Shown here: in pieces, positions 1-64,000 of the stretch
How the letters are laid out: the number at the start of each line of letters is the position of its first letter
Numbering within the stretch: position 1 is the first letter of the stretch
DNA from: Gammaproteobacteria bacterium
GTDB lineage: Bacteria; Pseudomonadota; Gammaproteobacteria; Acidiferrobacterales; SZUA-150
Direction: 5' to 3'
Assembly (NCBI GenBank): GCA_029880545.1
Contig: JAOUOD010000002.1
Coordinates: 200,767-264,766, forward strand
Length of the DNA: 64,000 nt
Translations under genes and position numbers: made by a program
The notes under the pieces: model-generated
Databases searched by the model: none
What the model was told of the DNA's origin: nothing
Seen by the model: the letters and a program-made list of their open reading frames with translations, nothing else

Positions 1-858
1 GTGTTTGCGATCCAGGACGAGTTGCGCACAAAGATCATTGCCGCCCTGTCCATTGTCCTGACCAACAAGGAAAAGCAGCGAATCGCCCGCCGCTACACTC
101 ACAGCATTGATGCCTACGACAGCTTCCTGAAAGGACAGTCCTACCTAGTCAAGCAAACCCGGGCAGACACAGTTATTGCCCGGCAACATTTCCAACGCGC
201 CATCGACAGCGACCCCGGCTTCGCACGCGCCTACAGTGGACTGGCACTGGCTTATGAAAATGAATACCGCTTCGGCTGGTCTGACAATCCAGGACAAACC
301 GCAAAGCTGGCACTCGCTAAAGGCATGCAGGCACTGGGACTGGACAAGGAATCGCCTCAAACCCATTGGGTCCTGGGAACTGTCTACCTGTTTGTCAGCG
401 GTGATCACGACCAGGCCATTGCCATGGGCGAGGCCACCATCGATATCGATCCCAATCATGCTGATGGCCTGATGTTACTGGCGGTAACCTATGCCTTTGG
501 AGGTGAACCGGACAGGGCCATTGCGCTGGTGGAAAAAGCCAAGCGACTCAACCCGTTTTACCCGTCGCAGTATCCATCGGTGCTAGGGCTTGCCAACCTG
601 CTGACAGGAAGATACGACAGCGCGATCACGGCTTACGAGGAATCCATTGCCATTAATCCAGTTCGAATCCAGCCCAACGTGTACCTGGTCGCCGCCTATG
701 TGCGCAGTGGGCAAATGGAGCATGCGCGCTGGCAGGCAGACAGGATCAGGGCGGATTTTCCCGGGTTTGACCTGGAACGCTGGGCCAGGCATCAACCTTA
801 TCGGGACAGGACCACGATGGCCGCCATACTTGCCGACATCAGGCAAGCCGGGCTATGA
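1..858 (+). CDS. TPR-repeat protein, C-terminal fragment (5' end lies outside the window)
   Basis: The ORF is open from base 1 in frame 1. It contains repeated TPR-like helical pairs (AYDSFLKGQSYL, ARQHFQRAIDSDPGFARAYSGLALAY, AIAMGEATIDIDPNHADGLMLLAVTY, AIALVEKAKRLNP, AITAYEESIAINP). The stop codon is at 856-858. Confidence 0.6.
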   Translation: MFAIQDELRTKIIAALSIVLTNKEKQRIARRYTHSIDAYDSFLKGQSYLVKQTRADTVIARQHFQRAIDSDPGFARAYSGLALAYENEYRFGWSDNPGQTAKLALAKGMQALGLDKESPQTHWVLGTVYLFVSGDHDQAIAMGEATIDIDPNHADGLMLLAVTYAFGGEPDRAIALVEKAKRLNPFYPSQYPSVLGLANLLTGRYDSAITAYEESIAINPVRIQPNVYLVAAYVRSGQMEHARWQADRIRADFPGFDLERWARHQPYRDRTTMAAILADIRQAGL

Positions 859-50181: not shown

Positions 50182-50991
50182 CTATTTTTCATCAATCTCT
50201 TCATCGAATTTCCGGATCTCGTTTTCAAGATCCAGGCTTTCTGAATCATCGTCGGGTTTGCGCTTGCCAATCCTTCGCGCAAAGAACAGGCCCACTTCAA
50301 ACAACAACATCATCGGAATGGCCAGCAGGGTTTGGGAAATCACATCCGGTGGCGTCAACAGCATCGCGACCGCAAACACGCCTATCAGGACGTAGGGGCG
50401 CTTGTCGGCAAGGGATTCCGGCTCGATAACCCCGGCATAGGTCAAAAGCAGGATCGCGACCGGTAATTCAAAAGCAATGCCAAAGGCGATAAACATTGCA
50501 AAGACAAAATCAAGATACGCCTTGATGTCGGTCATGATCTGCACGCCTTCCGGCGCCACCTTGGTGAAAAATTCGAACACCAGCGGGAACACAACAAAGT
50601 AGGCAAATGCCATACCACCATAGAACAGCAGCGTACTGGAGGCCAGCAACGGTATAACCAGGCGCCGTTCATGGCGGTACAGGCCGGGCGCGACAAATGC
50701 CCATGCCTGGTAAAGAATCCAGGGTATGGAAGCAACAAGGGATACAATAAACGCCAACCGGAGTGGAGTCAGAAACGGTGACGCCACTTCTGTTGCGATC
50801 ATGCTGGCGCCCTTGGGCAAAACACTCAGCAGCGGCTGGGCCAGAATGTTGTACAACTCCTGGGAATAAACTATCAATGGCAAAAATATCGCAAACACGC
50901 CTGCCAACGCATACAGCAAGCGGTTACGCAACTCGAGCAGGTGCGAAAAGAAACTGCCTTCCGCTTCGTAATCAGGTTGATTGTCAGTCAT
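50182..50991 (-). CDS. tatC: Twin-arginine translocase subunit TatC
   Basis: 269 aa with six TM segments and the N-terminal motif [14 protein letters not shown]. The start forms an ATGA overlap with the tatB stop. Confidence 0.96.
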
Positions 50992-51392
50992 CGGTCTTTG
51001 GGATGCTTTGTATCGGAAGCGTCTTCGCCGACCTGGCCGACGGCCTCGGTTTTGACAGGCTCTTCGCTATTCGCAGTCTTTCCTTCGATGGCATCGATAA
51101 GGTAGTCCGGTTCCGGTGATACAGGCTGGTTCAGGGTCTGGGCAATCTCGGCGGAAGACTGGTTCAGGTTATCTCGCGCCCGGGTTAATTCTTCCTTGAG
51201 TTTTCGTAGTTCGGCCAACTCCTCGGATTTGAGCTGTTCATCAAAATCATCCTTGACCGAGGCGATAAAATTCCGGATTCGCGCCACCCACTTGCCGGCA
51301 AAGCGTGCGGCTTCAGGCAGGCGTTTGGGTCCAAGAACAATCAGCGCCAATACAGAGATCAGCACCAGCTCCCAGAAACCGATATCAAACAT
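50988..51392 (-). CDS. tatB: Twin-arginine translocase subunit TatB
   Basis: 134 aa with the N-terminus [26 protein letters not shown]. Confidence 0.93.
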
Positions 51393-51416
51393 AACTCCGG
51401 CCCGGCGATCGTCTTG

Positions 51417-51644
51417 TCAGACTTTGGAATTGTCTTTGTTTTCAGCAGGTGAAGACTCTCCATCAATAACGCGACTGGACTTGTCTTCCACTTGCGTTTT
51501 GCTGTCTGACTCTTCCTTCACAGCCTGCTTGAAACTCTTGATGGCGCCACCGAGATCGCCACCAACATTACGCAGTTTCCGGGTACCGAATACCAGGACC
51601 ACCACGGCCAGCAGAATCAATAATTGCCAGATACTAATACCCAT
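51417..51644 (-). CDS. tatA: Twin-arginine translocase subunit TatA
   Basis: 75 aa with the N-terminus [25 protein letters not shown]. Confidence 0.93.
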
Positions 51645-51700
51645 ATTCTCGTCCTCTTTGCGGTTACGTTACCGCCAGTCATAATAGTATAGTAATGTAA

Positions 51701-54638: not shown

Positions 54639-55229
54639 CTAGAGGCTTCCCTTGGTAGACGGGATCACATCGCCCATGCGCGGATCAGCTTCTACCGCCA
54701 TGCGCAGGGCACGACCAAACGCCTTGAAAATGGTCTCGGCAATATGGTGTGCATTCCGACCACGGATGCAGTCGATGTGCAGCGTCGTTAACGCGTGATT
54801 ACAGAACCCCTGGAAGAACTCTCCCAGCAGGTCAATATCGAACTCACCCACGTGCGAGCGCGGGTAGTCGACCTGGTATTCGAGCCCAGGGCGACCGGAA
54901 AAATCGATCACCACCCGGCTCAATGCCTCATCTAGCGGTACATAGGCGTGGCCATAGCGGCGAATACCCTTCTTGTCGCCAATGGCCTTGGCCATCGCCT
55001 GGCCAAGGGTAATGCCAATGTCCTCGACCGTGTGATGATCATCAATATGGGTATCACCCTCGGCCTTGATTTCCAGATCCACCAGGCCATGACGCGCCAC
55101 CTGGTCCAGCATGTGCTCGAGAAACGGCACGCCGGTATCCAGCACAGCCTTGCCGGACCCATCCAGGTCAATACTGACCGTAATCCGGGTTTCGTTGGTA
55201 TTGCGCGTAATTGAAGCGGTGCGGCTCAT
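54639..55229 (-). CDS. hisB: Imidazoleglycerol-phosphate dehydratase HisB (monofunctional)
   Basis: 196 aa counted from the ATG at 55229 (AAGGAA RBS). Motifs are [19 protein letters not shown] and GRNAHHIAE. No phosphatase domain is present. Confidence 0.95.
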
Positions 55230-55334
55230 GTGAACAGGATTCCTTGAAATGTCTGCCCCGAGTTTACCAAATATCCCGGTAAACTCACGCACATCTGTGC
55301 CTGCCCTGTTGACAGCAATTGCCTAAAGCTGCGG

Positions 55335-58300
55335 TTACTTGCCTGCCTGCGGCCCTGGCGACCCGGCACCACTGTCATTAGCATCGGCTGCCCGGGGCTG
55401 CCCGGCCGCAGCTGTCTCGCCGACGGGGCTGAAGTGATACTCGAACACCTCCATGGATTGCATGTAGCCGGTTTCCGACTCCGTGCGCGCGTAGCGCGCC
55501 GGCATCATTTCAGCCAGCCGATCCATGCTTTTCTGCAGCCAGGGACTAAGAACACCGAGAGCCAGGAGTTCCCGGTTTTTTGCGTGCACGGCAATAGCTT
55601 TCTCTTCAACCTGGTATACCTGGTCCTCCAGGGCGAGCTCGTATTCCTCTGCCTCAATCTTGCTCAGCCTGCCTGGTCGTTCCGATTCGGCCATGGCACG
55701 CGCCAGCCGGTAGTACATATCGCCAATATAATAGGTCGCCGCGGCGGTAAACTCGGCCACCCGGTAGTCGAGCAAACGGTTACACAGTTCGACCGTGTGG
55801 ACCATCTGGTTCTTCTTGAGTTGCAGCATCTTCCTGAATGGCTGTGCCAGGCGCATGGCAACAAACTTTTCATATTCCGGCTCAATGAAAACAAGCTGGG
55901 CACTCGCCGCCAGGTAACGGGTTCTCTCGGTTCGCTTCTCCCCGGCCCCGGCCTCGGTTTCGATAAACTTCTTCAGATCGGCAAGGTAGGCATCGTGCTT
56001 GCCCTGCAGTTGATAAAGACCGGCGATACGAAACCGGGCTTCCAGTACCGGCTCCAGGGGATCAGGGAACAACGCGATATACCGGCTATAAGATACGTGA
56101 GACGCCGGGTAGTTTTCGGCAGCCTGGTACATCTCGGCAGCCGTAATCAGCGCTTCACGCCTTGTTGATTCGTCACTCGGGCCGGTTGCAAGCCGTTCAA
56201 ACTCGACAGCGGCCCGGTCAAATTGCTTCATCTCCCGGAATACCACGGCGAGTCTTGATGTAGCATCAATGGCCAGCTTATGACCACCGAACATGCTCCG
56301 GAAAGATTGCAGCGCCAGCGCTGCTTCCGGCCAGCGTTGCAGCTGAATCAGGATTGACGCTGCATCAAAGTCTGCTGTTGGGCGGATATCGGAACCAGGC
56401 GCCGATTTTGCGACGCGGGCAAAATGTCCGAGGGCGCGCTCAGGATCAGCATCGGCCACTGCCTGCTCACCCTGACGATAGATAGAGGCCGCCAGGTTAT
56501 TAATCAGCTTGTCTCGCTCAGGGTCTTTTGGATTGGTAAGACGCACTGCCTTGCGGTATGCCTGCTCCGCCAGGACATGGTTCTTGCTGTCGAACTCGGC
56601 ATGGGCAATCACGAGCCAGGCCGAACGACGCATTCCCTTTTCCGCCTTTGGATACTCATCAAGCAATCGTCGCGCTACCTGGTTGGCCATCGGGTAGTTT
56701 CCTGACTGAAAATAATCTTCGGCTACCGCGGCCAGTATCATCGGCACCTTGTCGAAACCCCGGAATGAGTCGGCAAACTTTAGTGAAACAGCGATAATCT
56801 TTTCCCGCGCGCCAGGCTGATCTGCAGCAGGTAATTGTTCGTAACCCTGGCGATATGCAGACACGGCGGCATAACCGGCATCGCGGGCCCGGCCATGCAC
56901 ACCATAGCTGTAGGCGGTTCGCTCGAATTCCGCCCCTGCCTGCGCATAATGCTTGCCACCGAGCAACATCTCGGCGAGGCGATAATTCATCTCCGGAGCC
57001 ATGGCATCATCAGGGAGCGATGACAGGAACTGCGTATACCACATGATTGCCTGCTCAAGATTTTCCGAATGGTTTTTTGCAAAACGCTTGTCCTGGTACA
57101 AGGCATGGTAGTGGCCGGCAAGCTCGGACAAGGTATTTTTCAGATGACCGACAACATCGTTGTACGCGCGAATGTCATTATGCTTCCAGTATTCCGAATA
57201 CAATCCATAAGCTAAAGCAAACTGTTTTCTCGCCTCCAGCACATAACCGCTGAACCCGCCTTTCTTGTAGACATCGGCAATACGAAGGTGGAGATAAGGT
57301 GACTTGGGATGATACGGGTACTGTCTGATAAACGCACGGTAGGTTTCTGCCGCGTCATTGTAACGACGTGTAGCCAGGTAGTGCTCGGCAAGGTGCCTGT
57401 ATATGCCTTCCTCGTAACTACGGTTACCGTTTTCCCTGAAATACCCGGCAACCGATTCAGCGCCACCAAGACTGGAAAAACTGAGACTGATGGCCCGGTA
57501 GATATCTTCCATGCGCACCGGGTCGGTCGACGTGACCGTGGAATCTCGACTACCGGTTTTCCCGGTCTCGTGATCAAGCAAGGCGATAAAGAATTTCAAT
57601 GCAGCCTGGTAACGTTGTTGCCGGTAGCTGGTCCAGCCCGCCTTGCCCAGTGCAAGCTCAAAGTAGGAAGACGCCGGTCCGCTGGCGATTATGGCCTGGT
57701 ATGCGGCGTTTGCCTGGTCATACCGTTTGCGGGCAAAGTAATATTCACCCAACCGAAACCTGGCTTCATCGATATAGGCTGACCCGGGGAAGCGCGCTTC
57801 CATCTGATGCAAAATACTGATCGCTTCTTCCGTGTTACCGAGTTCCTCATAGGCGCGTGATAACTGGTACAGCACCCGGTCGTTGTATTCAAAATCAGGG
57901 AACCGTTTCAATACACTTTTATACAAACCAATTGCTTCAAGCGCACCGGTTCTGCCCGGATCTACAACAACATTACCCGGCAATTTTTCGGGCAGGGAGT
58001 CAGCTGACAATTTTTTCCTGCTGACAGCTGTCACGCGGCGTTCGAATGCGTCACCTGATTCGCGCTTGATGGCTGGCGCTGGGTCGGCTGAATCCTTGAC
58101 CTGCGGAACCGGCGCGTCACCTGCCTGCAACATGCGCTCCCGGTATTCCCTGGCCTGTTCAATTTTCAGATCGGCCAGCCGTCGTATGGCTTCCGGTGCG
58201 ATCTTCGTGTGTGAATCCTGCTCGAGATATCGCTGGTAATTTTCTACAGCCTTTTCAGTGCTGTGTTCGATCTTCTCATCTTTCAGTTCAATCTTGACAT

Positions 58301-58394
58301 CATCAAGCCCGGCCAACGTTTGACGACGATCGGCTGAAACACAACCAGCCATTGCGACAATCAGAAGAACCGGCAGAGCACGAATAACATTCAT
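55335..58394 (-). CDS. Very large TPR-repeat lipoprotein (about 1019 aa), unassigned family
   Basis: The ATG at 58394 lies 13 nt after the upstream stop. It has a signal peptide plus lipobox (LLIVAMAGC). TPR-like helix pairs recur along nearly the whole length (e.g. YQLSRAYEELGNTEEAISILHQM, RFRLGEYYFARKRYDQANAAYQAI, HLRIADVYKKGG, YRLAEMLLGGKHYAQAGAEFERT, RFRIAGLYQLQGKHDAYL). The C-terminal tail is low-complexity Ala/Gly/Pro. No catalytic motif was recognised. Confidence 0.75.
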   Translation of the reverse strand: MNVIRALPVLLIVAMAGCVSADRRQTLAGLDDVKIELKDEKIEHSTEKAVENYQRYLEQDSHTKIAPEAIRRLADLKIEQAREYRERMLQAGDAPVPQVKDSADPAPAIKRESGDAFERRVTAVSRKKLSADSLPEKLPGNVVVDPGRTGALEAIGLYKSVLKRFPDFEYNDRVLYQLSRAYEELGNTEEAISILHQMEARFPGSAYIDEARFRLGEYYFARKRYDQANAAYQAIIASGPASSYFELALGKAGWTSYRQQRYQAALKFFIALLDHETGKTGSRDSTVTSTDPVRMEDIYRAISLSFSSLGGAESVAGYFRENGNRSYEEGIYRHLAEHYLATRRYNDAAETYRAFIRQYPYHPKSPYLHLRIADVYKKGGFSGYVLEARKQFALAYGLYSEYWKHNDIRAYNDVVGHLKNTLSELAGHYHALYQDKRFAKNHSENLEQAIMWYTQFLSSLPDDAMAPEMNYRLAEMLLGGKHYAQAGAEFERTAYSYGVHGRARDAGYAAVSAYRQGYEQLPAADQPGAREKIIAVSLKFADSFRGFDKVPMILAAVAEDYFQSGNYPMANQVARRLLDEYPKAEKGMRRSAWLVIAHAEFDSKNHVLAEQAYRKAVRLTNPKDPERDKLINNLAASIYRQGEQAVADADPERALGHFARVAKSAPGSDIRPTADFDAASILIQLQRWPEAALALQSFRSMFGGHKLAIDATSRLAVVFREMKQFDRAAVEFERLATGPSDESTRREALITAAEMYQAAENYPASHVSYSRYIALFPDPLEPVLEARFRIAGLYQLQGKHDAYLADLKKFIETEAGAGEKRTERTRYLAASAQLVFIEPEYEKFVAMRLAQPFRKMLQLKKNQMVHTVELCNRLLDYRVAEFTAAATYYIGDMYYRLARAMAESERPGRLSKIEAEEYELALEDQVYQVEEKAIAVHAKNRELLALGVLSPWLQKSMDRLAEMMPARYARTESETGYMQSMEVFEYHFSPVGETAAAGQPRAADANDSGAGSPGPQAGK

Positions 58395-58407
58395 AAGTTG
58401 CCTGCCA

Positions 58408-60264
58408 CTATCCACCTCGTGCGCGATCATAGCTCCTGGCCAGTTCAAAGCGTGCCTTGACCTGGTGAGCCTTGAGTTGTTTTATCCGCCGATCAATTTC
58501 GGTTATTGCCATATCAGTCAGCTGCTGTCGCTGTTGACTGATCAGCAACGCTGTTGCCGGAATTGCCTTGCTGATTCTTGAAGCCAGCGCGTTTAACTGG
58601 TCGTCATAGCCTTCGTAAGTATCCAGCAAAACCTGCCTGGCGCTGACAACAGCATGATGGCGCAACTTCAGGCTTTCCAGCTCGCTATCCAGCTGGTTCC
58701 AGCCTTGCTGGGCCAGCTGCCTCCTTGCGTCATAGTCGGTCAGCACCTGCCAGCGTATCAGGCCGGACAGGCGATCAAGCCGGCGCCGGTAGTCAGACGC
58801 GCTGGTTCCGCTGCCCGCATTCGCGTGCAGCAACCGGATTCTGTCCATATCTTTTTGTTCAACGGCGCTGACAAATAATCCCGGATCAGACTGATCGTTC
58901 AGCGAACTCAACTGGCCGTAGATCCGGTGTCGACTGGCAAACTGCATGGACATTCGCGCCGCCAGTAGCTCAAAGTCCTTGTCAATCCCGGGCAGAAATC
59001 GATCGTAATAATCTTTTCTGGCGCGAATCATCTCCTGGTAATACACCACATCCCGGCGCCAGGTTTGCAGGCGCTCATTCAGCTCCTCAAGATCAAGAAG
59101 ATTTCCGAATGCCTCCTGCGCGTCATGGTTCGCCATTAACTTGGCCAGGTAGTGGTTCTCTGGGGAATTGCCCACGGAATCGAGACGAATCGCCCAGGTA
59201 CCGGCCTGCTTCAACCGCTCTTTGATGAGGTGTCTGAAAAAAGTACCGGCCAGAATATTGGAGCGTGATGTTTCAAGGCGCGACATCTCCGAGTCAAAAG
59301 CCTTGATCGCCTTCTCATACATGAGTGCTGCCTTGCCATGCAATCCGAGCTTGCCATATGCGTAGCCAATACCAAGCAGCGCTTCCTGCACACCCATGTC
59401 CGCGAGCACGCGCCCGGCAAGTTCGTTCCAGGAAACAATCGCGCGATCGTAGCGCTTCAGTGCAACGTCAGCCCAGCCCAGCCCGAGCAGAGCCCGGTTG
59501 GAAAAAGGACCTTCCAGCCTGACGCGCACGAGACTGGCCCGGGCCTGCTCCGGTCGATTCAGTTCCAGCAGGCGGAAACCAAGAGCCAGTGCCGCCTTGT
59601 CACGAATGGAGTGTGATGCCTCTGTATCAGAACCTGTATCAGCAACCTTTTCGAGATAACGAATGCTTTTTTCGTCCAGGCCAAGTCTTGCATAGGCCAC
59701 GCCCAGGTTGTAGGAAGCAAAACCTGCGTAACGATCATTGTCCAGCAATGGCTCAAGCAGTGTTATCGCTTCCTTGTTCCTGTCGTTTATGATCAGGACC
59801 AGCGCCTTTTGAAATGTGATATCCGCCTTTGATGCAACTGGCAACCGGCCCGATATCCGGTCAACCACAGCCAATGCTTGCGCACGCTGGTCTTTTCGCA
59901 ACAAGGTCTGGCCCAGCTGATGCAGGGCAAAATCACGATCCACGCCATCAAGACCGGCGTCTTCAGCGACCTTGATGGCACCCGCTGCACGTTCATGCAA
60001 GCGGTACTTGAGAGAAAAACTGCCCACGGTGAAATCAGGGCGATTGGCCTCATACCGCAAAACACCAAGCTTGTTCTGGTCGAGCCAGAAATTCCGGCCC
60101 AGGCCCGATTCAAGCCTGACCAATGCATCAAAATCATGGCCAAGAAATGATTGATACAGGGCTTCGCCAACATACAAATCCGGCGGAACGCGGGTATCCG
60201 CAGCGGCCGGCAGGATTGTAAGCATGCCCAGGTACACCACCAGTGTGTTTCGCAGATTGCTCAC
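58408..60264 (-). CDS. Secreted TPR plus coiled-coil protein (618 aa), unassigned family
   Basis: The GTG start lies 3 nt after the upstream stop. It has a signal peptide (LVVYLGMLTILPAAA|D). The N-terminal half holds about 7 TPR-like repeats (SYNLGVAYARLGLDEKSIRYLEKV, LLGIGYAYGKLGLHGKAALMYEKAI). The C-terminal ~280 aa are heptad-rich helices. Confidence 0.7.
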   Translation of the reverse strand: MSNLRNTLVVYLGMLTILPAAADTRVPPDLYVGEALYQSFLGHDFDALVRLESGLGRNFWLDQNKLGVLRYEANRPDFTVGSFSLKYRLHERAAGAIKVAEDAGLDGVDRDFALHQLGQTLLRKDQRAQALAVVDRISGRLPVASKADITFQKALVLIINDRNKEAITLLEPLLDNDRYAGFASYNLGVAYARLGLDEKSIRYLEKVADTGSDTEASHSIRDKAALALGFRLLELNRPEQARASLVRVRLEGPFSNRALLGLGWADVALKRYDRAIVSWNELAGRVLADMGVQEALLGIGYAYGKLGLHGKAALMYEKAIKAFDSEMSRLETSRSNILAGTFFRHLIKERLKQAGTWAIRLDSVGNSPENHYLAKLMANHDAQEAFGNLLDLEELNERLQTWRRDVVYYQEMIRARKDYYDRFLPGIDKDFELLAARMSMQFASRHRIYGQLSSLNDQSDPGLFVSAVEQKDMDRIRLLHANAGSGTSASDYRRRLDRLSGLIRWQVLTDYDARRQLAQQGWNQLDSELESLKLRHHAVVSARQVLLDTYEGYDDQLNALASRISKAIPATALLISQQRQQLTDMAITEIDRRIKQLKAHQVKARFELARSYDRARGG

Positions 60265-60267
60265 AGC

Positions 60268-60807
60268 CTAGCGCTCAAAAAACTCGATACCGTTTTCCTG
60301 TTCCAGGCTCGCCAGCCGAATCTCGATAATTGCCGGGTGCACGCCCTTTACCACGGTATAACTGATTCGGCGCTGCGCAGTCTGGTTATTGGACAGCCTG
60401 CCGACCACGTGCAGGTCAAGCTTGTGCTCACGAAGCTTGATATTGCCGGTATAGAGTCGCTGAACGCCGCCATTTTTAAGTGCACTGATCTCCATTGGTG
60501 CATACTTGTGGTGTATCACTTCCTTGCCATCGATACTGATGGCCAGCGAAGCAAGGTCAAACGGTCCGCCATCTTTCAGGGATAAATAGATTGCGATCTG
60601 GGTATAGGCCGGGTACAGCAGCCTGTCTTCAAGTGTTTGCAGCTCGGTACCGATATCTAGAACTTCTTCCTTGGCCTTGCGCACCTGCTCATCCAGCCCT
60701 TTCGCTTGATCGGCGAGCGTCGCCAGGGGGAGACCGGCGATAAGAATTCCTGCTACACATACCGCGACTACCTGCAACAATCCGCTCTTGGCGATACTGG
60801 ACACCAC
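60268..60807 (-). CDS. Small signal-anchored/secreted protein (179 aa): coiled coil plus beta-rich domain, unassigned family
   Basis: GTG start with GGGAG 5-6 nt upstream. It has an N-terminal hydrophobic segment (LLQVVAVCVAGILIAGLPLATLA), a short coiled coil (LDEQVRKAKEEVLDIGTELQTLEDRL) and then beta-strand-patterned sequence. It is the first gene of the tightly packed trio. Confidence 0.65.
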   Translation of the reverse strand: MVSSIAKSGLLQVVAVCVAGILIAGLPLATLADQAKGLDEQVRKAKEEVLDIGTELQTLEDRLLYPAYTQIAIYLSLKDGGPFDLASLAISIDGKEVIHHKYAPMEISALKNGGVQRLYTGNIKLREHKLDLHVVGRLSNNQTAQRRISYTVVKGVHPAIIEIRLASLEQENGIEFFER

Positions 60808-60942
60808 ACCACTCCCTAATAGTTATTTTCGTTATAAATTGTAGCGCATCCGGGAAAATTTCCGACGCGTTAATGGGTCGCCCGGCATCAGCAATACCAA
60901 GTTATTGTTTTCAGAAGGGATTTACGGGTTTCTCCGGCCAGT

Positions 60943-62028
60943 TTAGCTTAGTTCAGCCATCGCTTTCAGGAAAACATCGTTTTCTTCAGGTGTGCCGATG
61001 GTGGTGCGCAAGCAATTCTCGAGCAGCGGGTCGGCGTGGGACAGGTTTTTGATCAGCACACCCGCCTGTTTCAGTGACTCATGCACCGCATCGCCGGCAG
61101 CGTGGCGGGAGCGGAACAGGATGAAGTTGGCCTCGCTGGGCCAAGCCTGGATGTCCGGCATGTGTGACAGTGCATCAAAAACACGCTGCCGCTCGGAAAC
61201 AATGGCAGCGGTCTGCTCGTGCAGAAAACGGGCATTGTCCAGGGCAAACTCGGCACCGGTCTGGGTCAGGCTGTTCACGTTATAGGGCATGCGCACCTTG
61301 TCGAATTCCTGCAACCAGCGGCCATCGCCGGCCAGCAGACCCAGGCGCAACCCGGCGAGACCCAATTTGGAGACAGTGCGCATCACCACAACATTGTCAT
61401 AACCGGCCAATCGCGACATCCATGAGTCCGAGGCAAACGCGTAATAAGCTTCGTCGATAACAACAAGGCCATTGGCTGCACGGATTATGGCTTCCATCTG
61501 TTCACGGGCGAACAGGTTGCCGGTGGGATTGTTGGGATACGCCAGGAATATGACTGCCGGATCATGCTGTTCAATGGCAGCGAGCATGGCAGGCAGATCA
61601 AGCGCGAAATCATCAGCCCGCAACGGCACGCCGACATGTTTCATGCCAACAAAACGCGCAGTCATGTCGTACATGACAAATCCGGGAACCGGTGACATGA
61701 CTACCGCCCCCGGTCGCGCCATGGCCAGCATGATCATCTGGATGATTTCATCAGAGCCGTTGCCTAACAGGATTTCTGCTTCGTCGGGCACGGCCATTTC
61801 CCGGCGCAGCCCCGGTCGCAGTTGTTGCGCCGACGGGTCCGGGTAACGGTTGATATCGGTCTGCACCAGCTTGTCGGCCCAGGCGCGCTTGAGATCCTCC
61901 GGCCATGGATACGGGTTCTCCATGGCATCAAGCTTGATCAGGTCGCCGGGATCGGCAACACCATAGGCTTTTAATGCCCGAATCTCGGGACGCACCAGTT
62001 GTTCGATACGCTTGTTAATGTCGGTCAT
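60943..62028 (-). CDS. hisC: Histidinol-phosphate aminotransferase HisC
   Basis: 361 aa, a class-II aminotransferase with the PLP-lysine region (MRTVSKLGLAGLRLG). It is in his operon context. Confidence 0.95.
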   Translation of the reverse strand: MTDINKRIEQLVRPEIRALKAYGVADPGDLIKLDAMENPYPWPEDLKRAWADKLVQTDINRYPDPSAQQLRPGLRREMAVPDEAEILLGNGSDEIIQMIMLAMARPGAVVMSPVPGFVMYDMTARFVGMKHVGVPLRADDFALDLPAMLAAIEQHDPAVIFLAYPNNPTGNLFAREQMEAIIRAANGLVVIDEAYYAFASDSWMSRLAGYDNVVVMRTVSKLGLAGLRLGLLAGDGRWLQEFDKVRMPYNVNSLTQTGAEFALDNARFLHEQTAAIVSERQRVFDALSHMPDIQAWPSEANFILFRSRHAAGDAVHESLKQAGVLIKNLSHADPLLENCLRTTIGTPEENDVFLKAMAELS

Positions 62029-63369: not shown

Positions 63370-64000
63370 TTACGAAAGCGTTTCAACTGCCTGCGCCAGT
63401 TGATCCACCAGCGCTTTCAGTTTGTTGTGTTTCATTTTCATGGAAGCCTTGTTGGCCACCAGTCGTGAGCTGATATCGGCAATATGCTCCACTTCAACGA
63501 GGCCATTGGCCTTCATGGTATTGCCGGTACTGACCAGGTCAACGATACGATCGGACAGGCCTACCAGTGGCGCCAGTTCCATGGAACCGTAGAGCTTGAT
63601 GATCTCGGTCTGAATACCCTTGGCGGCAAAATGGCGCTTGGCAATATTCACGTACTTGGTGGCAATGCGCAGGCGCGTCCACTTGCTCGGATCATCGGTG
63701 CGCGCCATTTCCCTCGGCTCAGCAACCATGAGTCGGCACGGTGCCAGCTTGAGATCGAGTAACTCGTACAAGCCATCGCCGTCAAATTCCATCAACACGT
63801 CCTTGCCGGCAATGCCAAGGTCTGCAGCACCGTACTGCACGTAGGTGGGCACATCAGTAGCACGAATCAGCGTGAACTTTACATCCGGGCGATTGGTATC
63901 AAAGATCAGCTTGCGGCTCCTGTTCATGTCCTCAAGCGGTTCGATACCGGCATGCGCCAGCAGCGGCAGCGTATCGTCAAGGATACGACCCTTGGACAGT
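63370..64000 (-). CDS. hisG: ATP phosphoribosyltransferase HisG, short form (5' end runs off the window)
   Basis: The reading frame stays open to base 64000 (..[33 protein letters not shown]..). The ORF-track start at 63927 is an internal Met. There is no C-terminal regulatory domain, since the stop lies right after the catalytic core. Confidence 0.93.

Follow-up and report, generated by a model that had tools for sequence, protein, structure and literature searches.

Three genes, A, B, and C, lie between hisC and hisB on the minus strand of a 64,000-nt stretch of gammaproteobacterial DNA (here called the window), and these three open reading frames (ORFs) are the subject of this study. The trio is a detached and relocated variant of a known system, the core complex of the Agl-Glt type, which is functionally uncharacterized outside Myxococcus. 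Gene A (60268 to 60807, GTG start; MDH5631997.1, locus tag OEZ10_03290) encodes a protein of 179 aa, gene B (58408 to 60264, GTG start) one of 618 aa, and gene C (55335 to 58394, ATG start) one of 1,019 aa. What is new here is the A family as a conserved subunit of the complex, a boundary between scaffold and motor drawn from two natural splits, and the location within a his operon. On balance, we consider it probable, if far from assured, that A-B-C form the scaffold half of an Agl-Glt core-type trans-envelope machine which was split from its motor and came to lie between hisC and hisB, with the motor likely encoded at a remote site. For the window itself, the main value of this result is a correct annotation: the trio consists neither of orphan hypothetical proteins nor of histidine-related ones.

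Conserved cluster in relatives and the Agl-Glt core complex

A genome scan with a C alignment matched 480 species or more; of its loci, the best 80, among which the window's own genome is not found, were analyzed. Profile hidden Markov models (HMMs) were built from five or six reference clusters, and all ORFs of all 80 loci were scored with them. The loci span the Gamma-, Beta-, and Zetaproteobacteria, the Desulfuromonadales (Geobacter) and Desulfobacterales, and the Nitrospirota, Acidobacteriota, and Gemmatimonadota. The gene order in these relatives is A-B-C-D-E-ExbB-ExbD-ExbD-F, the further members being a tetratricopeptide repeat (TPR) lipoprotein of ~210 aa (D), a protein of ~100 aa (E), a MotA/ExbB protein, two ExbD proteins, and a GltG/TonB-like protein of ~450 aa (F). 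This order was first seen on contigs of A relatives, and three more contexts, including that of Thiohalomonas denitrificans, agree with it. The A, B, and C of the window are full-length homologues, at 36 to 45% identity, of the opening three genes of these clusters. The co-occurrence of the three genes, proposed for checking in an earlier note on this DNA, was confirmed, A being present at 64 and B at 63 of the 68 loci testable upstream. Downstream, where 53 loci were testable, ExbB and E were found at 52 each, F at 51, the ExbD paralogues at 49, and D at 46 or more; several of the misses in these counts are artifacts of longest-ORF calling.

The core complex of the Agl-Glt gliding machinery of Myxococcus comprises gltC, gltD, gltE, gltG, aglR, aglQ, aglS, and one extra gene, and its genes are clustered in some Gamma- and Betaproteobacteria, in Geobacter, and in Fibrobacter, where its role is unknown (PMC3169522). 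Table S3 of that study lists in succession Gura_3077 (GltC, 629 aa), Gura_3076 (GltD, 1,108 aa), Gura_3075 (GltE, 240 aa), Gura_3074 (in brackets), Gura_3073 (AglR, 211 aa), Gura_3072, Gura_3071, and Gura_3070 (GltG, 484 aa), with the same pattern in GM21, Mpe_A, Sde, TERTU, Tgr7, Maqu, and Sfri, and the tabulated genera include Geobacter, Methylibium, Saccharophagus, Teredinibacter, and Thioalkalivibrio (PMC3169522). The published homologues of GltC (MXAN_2541), among them Gura_3077, GM21_0438 (626 aa), Mpe_A1224 (634 aa), and Sde_3567 (624 aa), range from 620 to 640 aa, and those of GltD (MXAN_4870), among them Gura_3076, GM21_0439 (1,090 aa), Mpe_A1225 (941 aa), and Sde_3566 (957 aa), from 922 to 1,108 aa (PMC3169522).

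The order B-C-D-E-ExbB-ExbD-ExbD-F and the sizes of the encoded proteins match the tabulated core complex exactly, and loci from Geobacter, Geomonas, and the Cellvibrionaceae are among the 80 that carry the cluster. In the window, the counterpart of GltD is C, with its 1,019 aa and a lipobox, and that of GltC is B, a 618-aa protein with a signal peptide encoded directly upstream of C. The C-terminus of F from locus L012 matched NF033768 (AgmX/PglI C-terminal domain) at 59.4 bits (cutoff, 40) and the GltG and GltJ models too, and D matched the GltE model of NCBIfam below its cutoff. By gene order, protein sizes, and taxa, the predicted identity of the cluster is that of the Agl-Glt core complex. 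B would be GltC-like and C GltD-like, an equivalence with the Myxococcus proteins that is taken from the published tables and not from direct sequence comparison. The earlier note could place none of the three proteins in a named family; synteny and the published tables now link B and C to a described complex, itself functionally uncharacterized outside Myxococcus, while A is not covered by them. Compared with the published core complex (PMC3169522; PMC3858216), B and C have the positions and sizes of GltC and GltD and the relatives carry the full order, whereas the window has the front part only, which lies inside a his operon, and A, conserved in the cluster, is missing from the published tables.

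The earlier note had regarded the trio as an undescribed, self-contained three-gene envelope system specific to this locus. The tight packing of the genes, the lack of any Pfam, NCBIfam, or PDB match for A, and the generic TPR matches of B and C would agree with such a view, but it has to contend with thousands of homologues and with a larger, motor-bearing cluster at the 80 genome loci, in which ExbB, E, and F are present at 51 or 52 of the 53 testable loci and which matches a core complex in the literature since 2011. We therefore regard it as very improbable. The literature yielded nothing specific on later core-complex work or on clusters of ExbBD, TPR, and giant adhesin genes.

The likeness to the Myxococcus machinery extends to its dispersed genes, since gltC, gltD, and aglRQS lie there in three separate clusters and still cooperate (PMC3169522). 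On the other hand, the clusters examined are without associated GltA/B/H beta-barrels, GltK, CglB, GltI/J, or the cytoplasmic platform, and gliding is not expected here. Another relative is the Agl-Nfs spore-coat system of M. xanthus (NfsA-H), which puts paralogous modules of these types (GltC/D/E/G-like), together with the Agl motor, to work in surface transport other than motility; unlike the present cluster, it is specific to the Myxococcales and has added components.

A giant repeat protein adjoins the cluster at 25 of the 58 genome loci testable for it. It is secreted, ~3,400 to 4,200 aa in length, carries CLIPPER/DUF11, SdrD_B, and DUF7619 repeats, and is encoded either 3' of F or divergently 5' of A. 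The loci in question include L010:11499-16482, L011:17703-23081, and L012:17275-23081, and the N-termini of these three, which were read, show a short Cys-Ser-Asp motif behind a signal peptide. This CLIPPER/DUF11-repeat protein is a candidate cargo of the machine, or may be its surface partner. In a metagenome-assembled genome (MAG) of the Thiohalomonadaceae (L014, JBFFMJ010000004.1), two clusters stand in tandem, one of a short type (C of 935 aa, F of 303 aa) and one of a long type (C of ~1,200 aa, F of 448 aa, plus the giant protein). The cluster family has at least two paralogous subtypes, and the trio of the window fits neither cleanly.

Properties of the three proteins

The A homologue is the conserved opening gene of the cluster, 5' of B, which places it just upstream of each GltC homologue in the published tables; A is a conserved cluster subunit not included in the tables of Luciano et al. 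2011 (PMC3169522). In library searches, neither Pfam nor NCBIfam had a family for it. A single-sequence search with A returned only ten relatives, a profile of 32 sequences returned 4,542 proteins at E ≤ 1e-5, none of them with a Pfam domain, and an exhaustive search gave 1,386 clusters among 50%-identity representatives; all names given to the relatives by their sources are "hypothetical." The AlphaFold 2 (AF2) model of A (pLDDT, 89) consists of a signal helix, a 37-residue helix (28 to 64), and an eight-strand beta-sandwich. Compared with the PDB by Foldseek, this model gave nothing under E = 1e-3 and generic Ig-like sandwiches only, and the A profile had zero matches among PDB sequences. 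A is thus an extra component, omitted from the published tables, whose fold is predicted with confidence and has no relative among solved structures.

The N-terminus of A reads as a hydrophobic segment followed by TLA↓DQ, and in the family alignment this segment closes in AxA-type sites. Export signals in all three proteins, as reported in the earlier note, were found again, but the one in A, described there as an anchor, is more likely a cleavable signal peptide because the AxA-type sites occur family-wide. The distance from the A stop to the B start is exactly 3 nt at ~48 of 82 loci and a few nt at most of the others, and at one locus (L089) A and B are joined in frame as a single ORF. The conserved short spacer and this fusion point to a joint action of the two proteins and support their interaction; they suggest that A works with B. 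The idea that A-B fusions are common was dropped, as none was found in the top 150 representatives of the A family, which have a maximum length of 353 aa. Nearly all A proteins end, in the alignment, in F-K-D/E-W or F-K-D/E-R, those of the his-embedded clade in EFFER or EFYER, and those of the short-type clusters in KEWE. This conserved C-terminal tail of aromatic and charged residues suggests a docking motif.

B has the export signal ...LPAAA↓DT, read from its sequence, followed by a TPR region (~110 to 330) and a long C-terminal region that closes in a conserved ARFxxAxxYDRA motif, and full-length comparison with the second gene in clusters L001, L002, and L010 to L012 gives 37 to 40% identity. 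Myxococcus GltC is a periplasmic TPR connector, and B too combines TPRs with a long C-terminal region. In C, the lipobox reads AMAG↓C, and its Cys does not vary among the 56 homologues aligned. C has more than 1,865 homologues, the top matches being 41 to 46% identical; with the C proteins found in full clusters, it shares 41 to 45% identity. Called mechanically, the C ORF runs from a TTG at 58448 and has 1,037 aa. For both B and C, Pfam and NCBIfam gave generic TPR matches only. As the earlier note had it, the trio shows no enzymatic motif and two of its members are TPR/helical scaffolds, and its reading of these exported proteins as an envelope scaffold stands.

The AF2 model of C (pLDDT, 83) comprises a lipoprotein signal, helices 45 to 59 and 66 to 90, a disordered linker (92 to 143), a continuous all-alpha TPR solenoid (146 to 963), and a disordered tail; compared with the PDB by Foldseek, it matched generic TPR solenoids only (Ctr9, Ski3, IFT-A, OGT). 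In Myxococcus, mature GltD is modeled as beginning with a Cys; a helix at its N-terminus meets GltC, helical domains stand on both sides of the central TPR domain, and the termini are disordered (PMC11761067). The C model has the same layout. The N-terminal helix of GltD touches a helix of GltC, and close by is where GltG and GltJ attach with their TonB-like domains (PMC11761067). Helix 66 to 90 bears PEAIRRLADL(K), the most conserved motif of the C family, found unchanged in all 56 sequences and kept in the window, and by analogy this helix may be where GltC and the TonB-like domains dock.

C could instead be viewed as a Tol-Pal or Bam accessory, that is, as an oversized CpoB/YbgF or a BamD-type lipoprotein. 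It scored above the cutoff on TIGR02795 (tol_pal_ybgF; 102.8 versus 90.1 bits) and reached 78.0 bits on the BamD subfamily model TIGR03302 (length, 239; cutoff, 81.4), and the automatic annotation at JGI names homologues "TolA-binding protein." However, both scores are summed over five TPR stretches, repeated generic units, and on the CpoB equivalog PRK10803 (263 positions) C reached 25 bits, the cutoff being 383. Its neighbors include no tol-pal or bam genes, and the relatives adjoin a dedicated ExbB/ExbD/GltG-like set, not TolB or Pal. CpoB and C do have in common a periplasmic logic of coiled coil plus TPR and a TolQR-type motor, and the repeats of C resemble the YbgF TPR unit, but CpoB is small, single-domain, and encoded in the tol-pal operon, whereas C is a 1,019-aa lipoprotein solenoid with other neighbors. 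CpoB/YbgF was thus rejected for C, a 1,019-aa lipoprotein that passes the cutoff by summing only and has no tol or pal genes next to it. BamD/YfiO was rejected as well, the score being below the cutoff and the protein about four times too large for a lipoprotein of ~240 aa. Altogether, a Tol-Pal or Bam accessory is a most unlikely identity. The PEP-CTERM PrsT family (TIGR02917) was discarded too, with 18.8 bits for B against a cutoff of 312 and C not among the matches. The profile tests thus bore out neither the PrsT nor the Tol-Pal/Bam identity, which the earlier note had named as competing with its own view.

In the arrangement that we propose, C would be a GltD-like pillar, a lipoprotein of the outer membrane, B a GltC-like connector binding the N-terminal helix of C, and A a previously unlisted small subunit partnering B. 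Physically assembled, the three would make up the periplasmic, outer-membrane-proximal outer part of the machine. The inner part, composed of the GltE-like protein, E, and the AglRQS-like and GltG-like proteins, would couple the proton-motive force to this scaffold. The scaffold genes would have parted from those of the motor and entered the his operon between hisC and hisB, where they would be expressed by read-through from the his promoter, and their products would continue to work with a motor/transducer module whose genes lie elsewhere in the genome.

Separation of the trio from the motor genes

Neither D, E, ExbB, ExbD, and F nor the giant protein was found in the window by tblastn or by an unfiltered six-frame HMM search. 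The single-region clustering of Group B is therefore not seen here: the GltE-like gene, the extra gene, AglR/Q/S, and GltG are missing from the 64 kb, and C is followed by hisB. An ORF cut by the edge of the window (1 to 855, plus strand) encodes a TPR protein that scored far below the cutoffs of the PrsT, MamA, and PilW models and at 21 bits on the D-family HMM. Considered as the missing GltE-like gene, it was set aside, as it looks like an unrelated TPR protein.

At none of the 80 genome loci do his genes lie near the homologues of the trio, and a constant association with his operons, which the earlier note had raised as a question, does not hold. The his-operon location, although unique against these 80 loci, recurs in a second metagenomic lineage. 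On an ENA contig whose sample has a neighboring accession number (L006), a hisC C-terminus 80% identical to that of the window is followed after 47 nt by A (57%) and B (54%), and a JGI metagenome locus (L093), 97% identical to L006 in nucleotide sequence, has the same hisC-A-B arrangement with a hisC-A gap of ~260 nt. Taken over both loci, the identity to the window is 57 to 64% for A, 54 to 68% for B, and 80 to 82% for HisC. A metagenome scan with C alone returned no close relative, and one with the A alignment returned L093 only. The sequence of the window is also present in ENA (ERZ27296366, contig k141_214409), and there too hisB follows C. Alien genes inside proteobacterial histidine operons have been reviewed as a concept (PMC10138114), and the trio resembles them in being non-his genes that are embedded in, and probably transcribed with, the operon; no report was found of an operon with an envelope-scaffold module of 5.6 kb as the insert between hisC and hisB.

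Detachment was seen a second time, independently, in another gammaproteobacterial MAG (L089:7863-13122, JAOTYM010000030.1), which has the fused A-B ORF (713 aa), a C of 932 aa, and a 99-aa E-like ORF, with unrelated genes (CMD, cyclase, MMPL) downstream. D, ExbB, ExbD, and F were not found within 10 kb of this locus, which holds the most divergent member of the family. The his-embedded clade and L089 together indicate that the scaffold half was detached from the motor half at least twice. That A-B-C can be detached from the D, E, motor, and transducer genes marks a natural module boundary, and this boundary fits the published model of GltC and GltD as outer connectors (PMC11761067).

Several points weigh against the reading as a scaffold half of the Agl-Glt type with a remote motor. 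The motor genes are absent from the window, and their presence elsewhere in the genome is assumed, the search for them having covered these 64 kb only. B and C match no Glt-specific NCBIfam model, and it is the tables of Luciano et al. (PMC3169522) that tie them to Myxococcus GltC and GltD. Ranked by conserved positions, the A, B, and C of the window stand second or third from the bottom of 76 to 83 family members, and C, on a long branch, is 41% identical to the type-1 members, which are 51% identical among themselves. Divergence this high would also be compatible with a function that changed or relaxed once the motor was lost.

That both detached lineages diverge faster somewhat favors the alternative that the trio is a motor-independent descendant of the machine, either a passive scaffold anchored in the outer membrane or one powered by a generic Tol/Ton motor, and expressed with the his-tat operon. 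A, B, and C evolve faster than their cluster-embedded orthologues, keeping 82 to 83% of the positions that are ≥90% conserved in the family (median, 97%), and this, like the long branch of C and the missing motor half, agrees with such a descent. So do the B/C junction, where the window has a 13-nt spacer in place of the usual, ancestral 4-nt overlap (44 of 67 loci), and the state of L089, which is also detached, the most divergent, and fused in A-B. However, the motifs invariant in the family are kept in A, B, and C, which favors a surviving partnership with the motor, and the deviations are scattered rather than gathered on one surface. In Myxococcus, moreover, the dispersed genes of the system still cooperate, and the absence of the motor applies to the window alone. 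We consider the motor-independent descendant rather unlikely. A stronger version, in which A-B-C are an autonomous sub-machine that was detached at least twice, works alone or via a Tol/Ton motor, is tied to the his-tat genes, and has A as an obligate partner, is also doubtful, and a shade more so.

The possibility that the deviations cluster on the surface of a lost partner was dropped, as those at conserved positions are evenly spread and mostly conservative. This pattern indicates divergence under continued constraint rather than decay, and it bears on the further alternative that the trio is a decaying remnant of a broken cluster carried along in the his operon. The motor half is indeed missing locally and the divergence is high, but all three long ORFs, 5.5 kb in total, are intact, the signal peptides and the lipobox are preserved, the codon usage is native, and the substitutions at conserved sites are mostly conservative. 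Intact A and B genes are also found in the same arrangement behind hisC in a lineage 54 to 64% identical, which implies long purifying selection. With its intact ORFs, native codon usage, and retained conserved positions, the trio is under selection, and a decaying remnant is highly unlikely. The scaffold half of a core-type machine, with a partner motor encoded elsewhere, remains the reading that we prefer.

The trio within the histidine operon

The insert is bounded upstream by hisC (60943 to 62028, minus strand; Pfam Aminotran_1_2) and downstream by hisB (54639 to 55229, minus strand, ATG at 55229; Pfam IGPD, E = 1.9e-65). The order on the minus strand is hisG (63370 to 63927), hisD, hisC, A, B, C, hisB, hisH, hisA, hisF, hisI, hisE, tatA/B, and tatC, with Pfam support for HisG, HisD, and HisC upstream and for IGPD (HisB), HisH, HisA, HisF, HisI, HisE, and TatC downstream. 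The basic layout given in the earlier note proved correct: three intact ORFs on one strand between hisC and hisB, flanked by his genes recognized by Pfam, with spacers of 3 nt (A-B) and 13 nt (B-C) and gaps of 135 and 105 nt toward the his genes, all in agreement with the coordinates.

The 135-nt gap between hisC and A (60808 to 60942, minus strand) has AGGGAG as a ribosome-binding site and an isolated TACAAT at ~60843 to 60838. The promoter suspected there by the earlier note is thus represented by this hexamer, which is present but has no acceptable -35 element, and a consensus scan found neither a promoter nor a terminator in either gap. The 105-nt gap between C and hisB (55230 to 55334, minus strand) holds a hairpin with a perfect 9-bp stem (GAGTTTACC...GGTAAACTC), and the predicted fold of the whole gap has -32.5 kcal/mol. 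Since no T-run follows, the hairpin is not a canonical terminator, nor was it scored as one in the promoter and terminator scan; it could have an influence on mRNA stability or on read-through at the transition from the insert to hisB. With no terminator in either gap, transcription probably continues from the his promoter through the trio, which is probably cotranscribed with the his operon.

No scars of an insertion were found, the two gaps having no 8- to 12-mers in common, direct or inverted, and the block no flanking repeats. The GC content of A, B, and C is 0.535 to 0.548, and that of third codon positions (GC3) is 0.59 to 0.62. The codon-usage distance of B and C to the other long ORFs of the window is 0.08 to 0.10, compared with 0.07 to 0.15 for other real genes. 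All three measures lie inside the range of the window and support the judgment, made by eye in the earlier note, that the block has a native composition and is long resident.

The tatC gene, recognized by Pfam, lies behind hisE on the same strand, within 50182 to 51700 (minus strand), and the small ORFs between hisE and tatC are those labeled tatA/tatB by the earlier note. The export-dependent trio shares an apparent transcription unit with protein-export genes, which may be a coincidence. HisG is of the short form (185 aa as called), and short-form HisG normally requires a separately encoded HisZ subunit.

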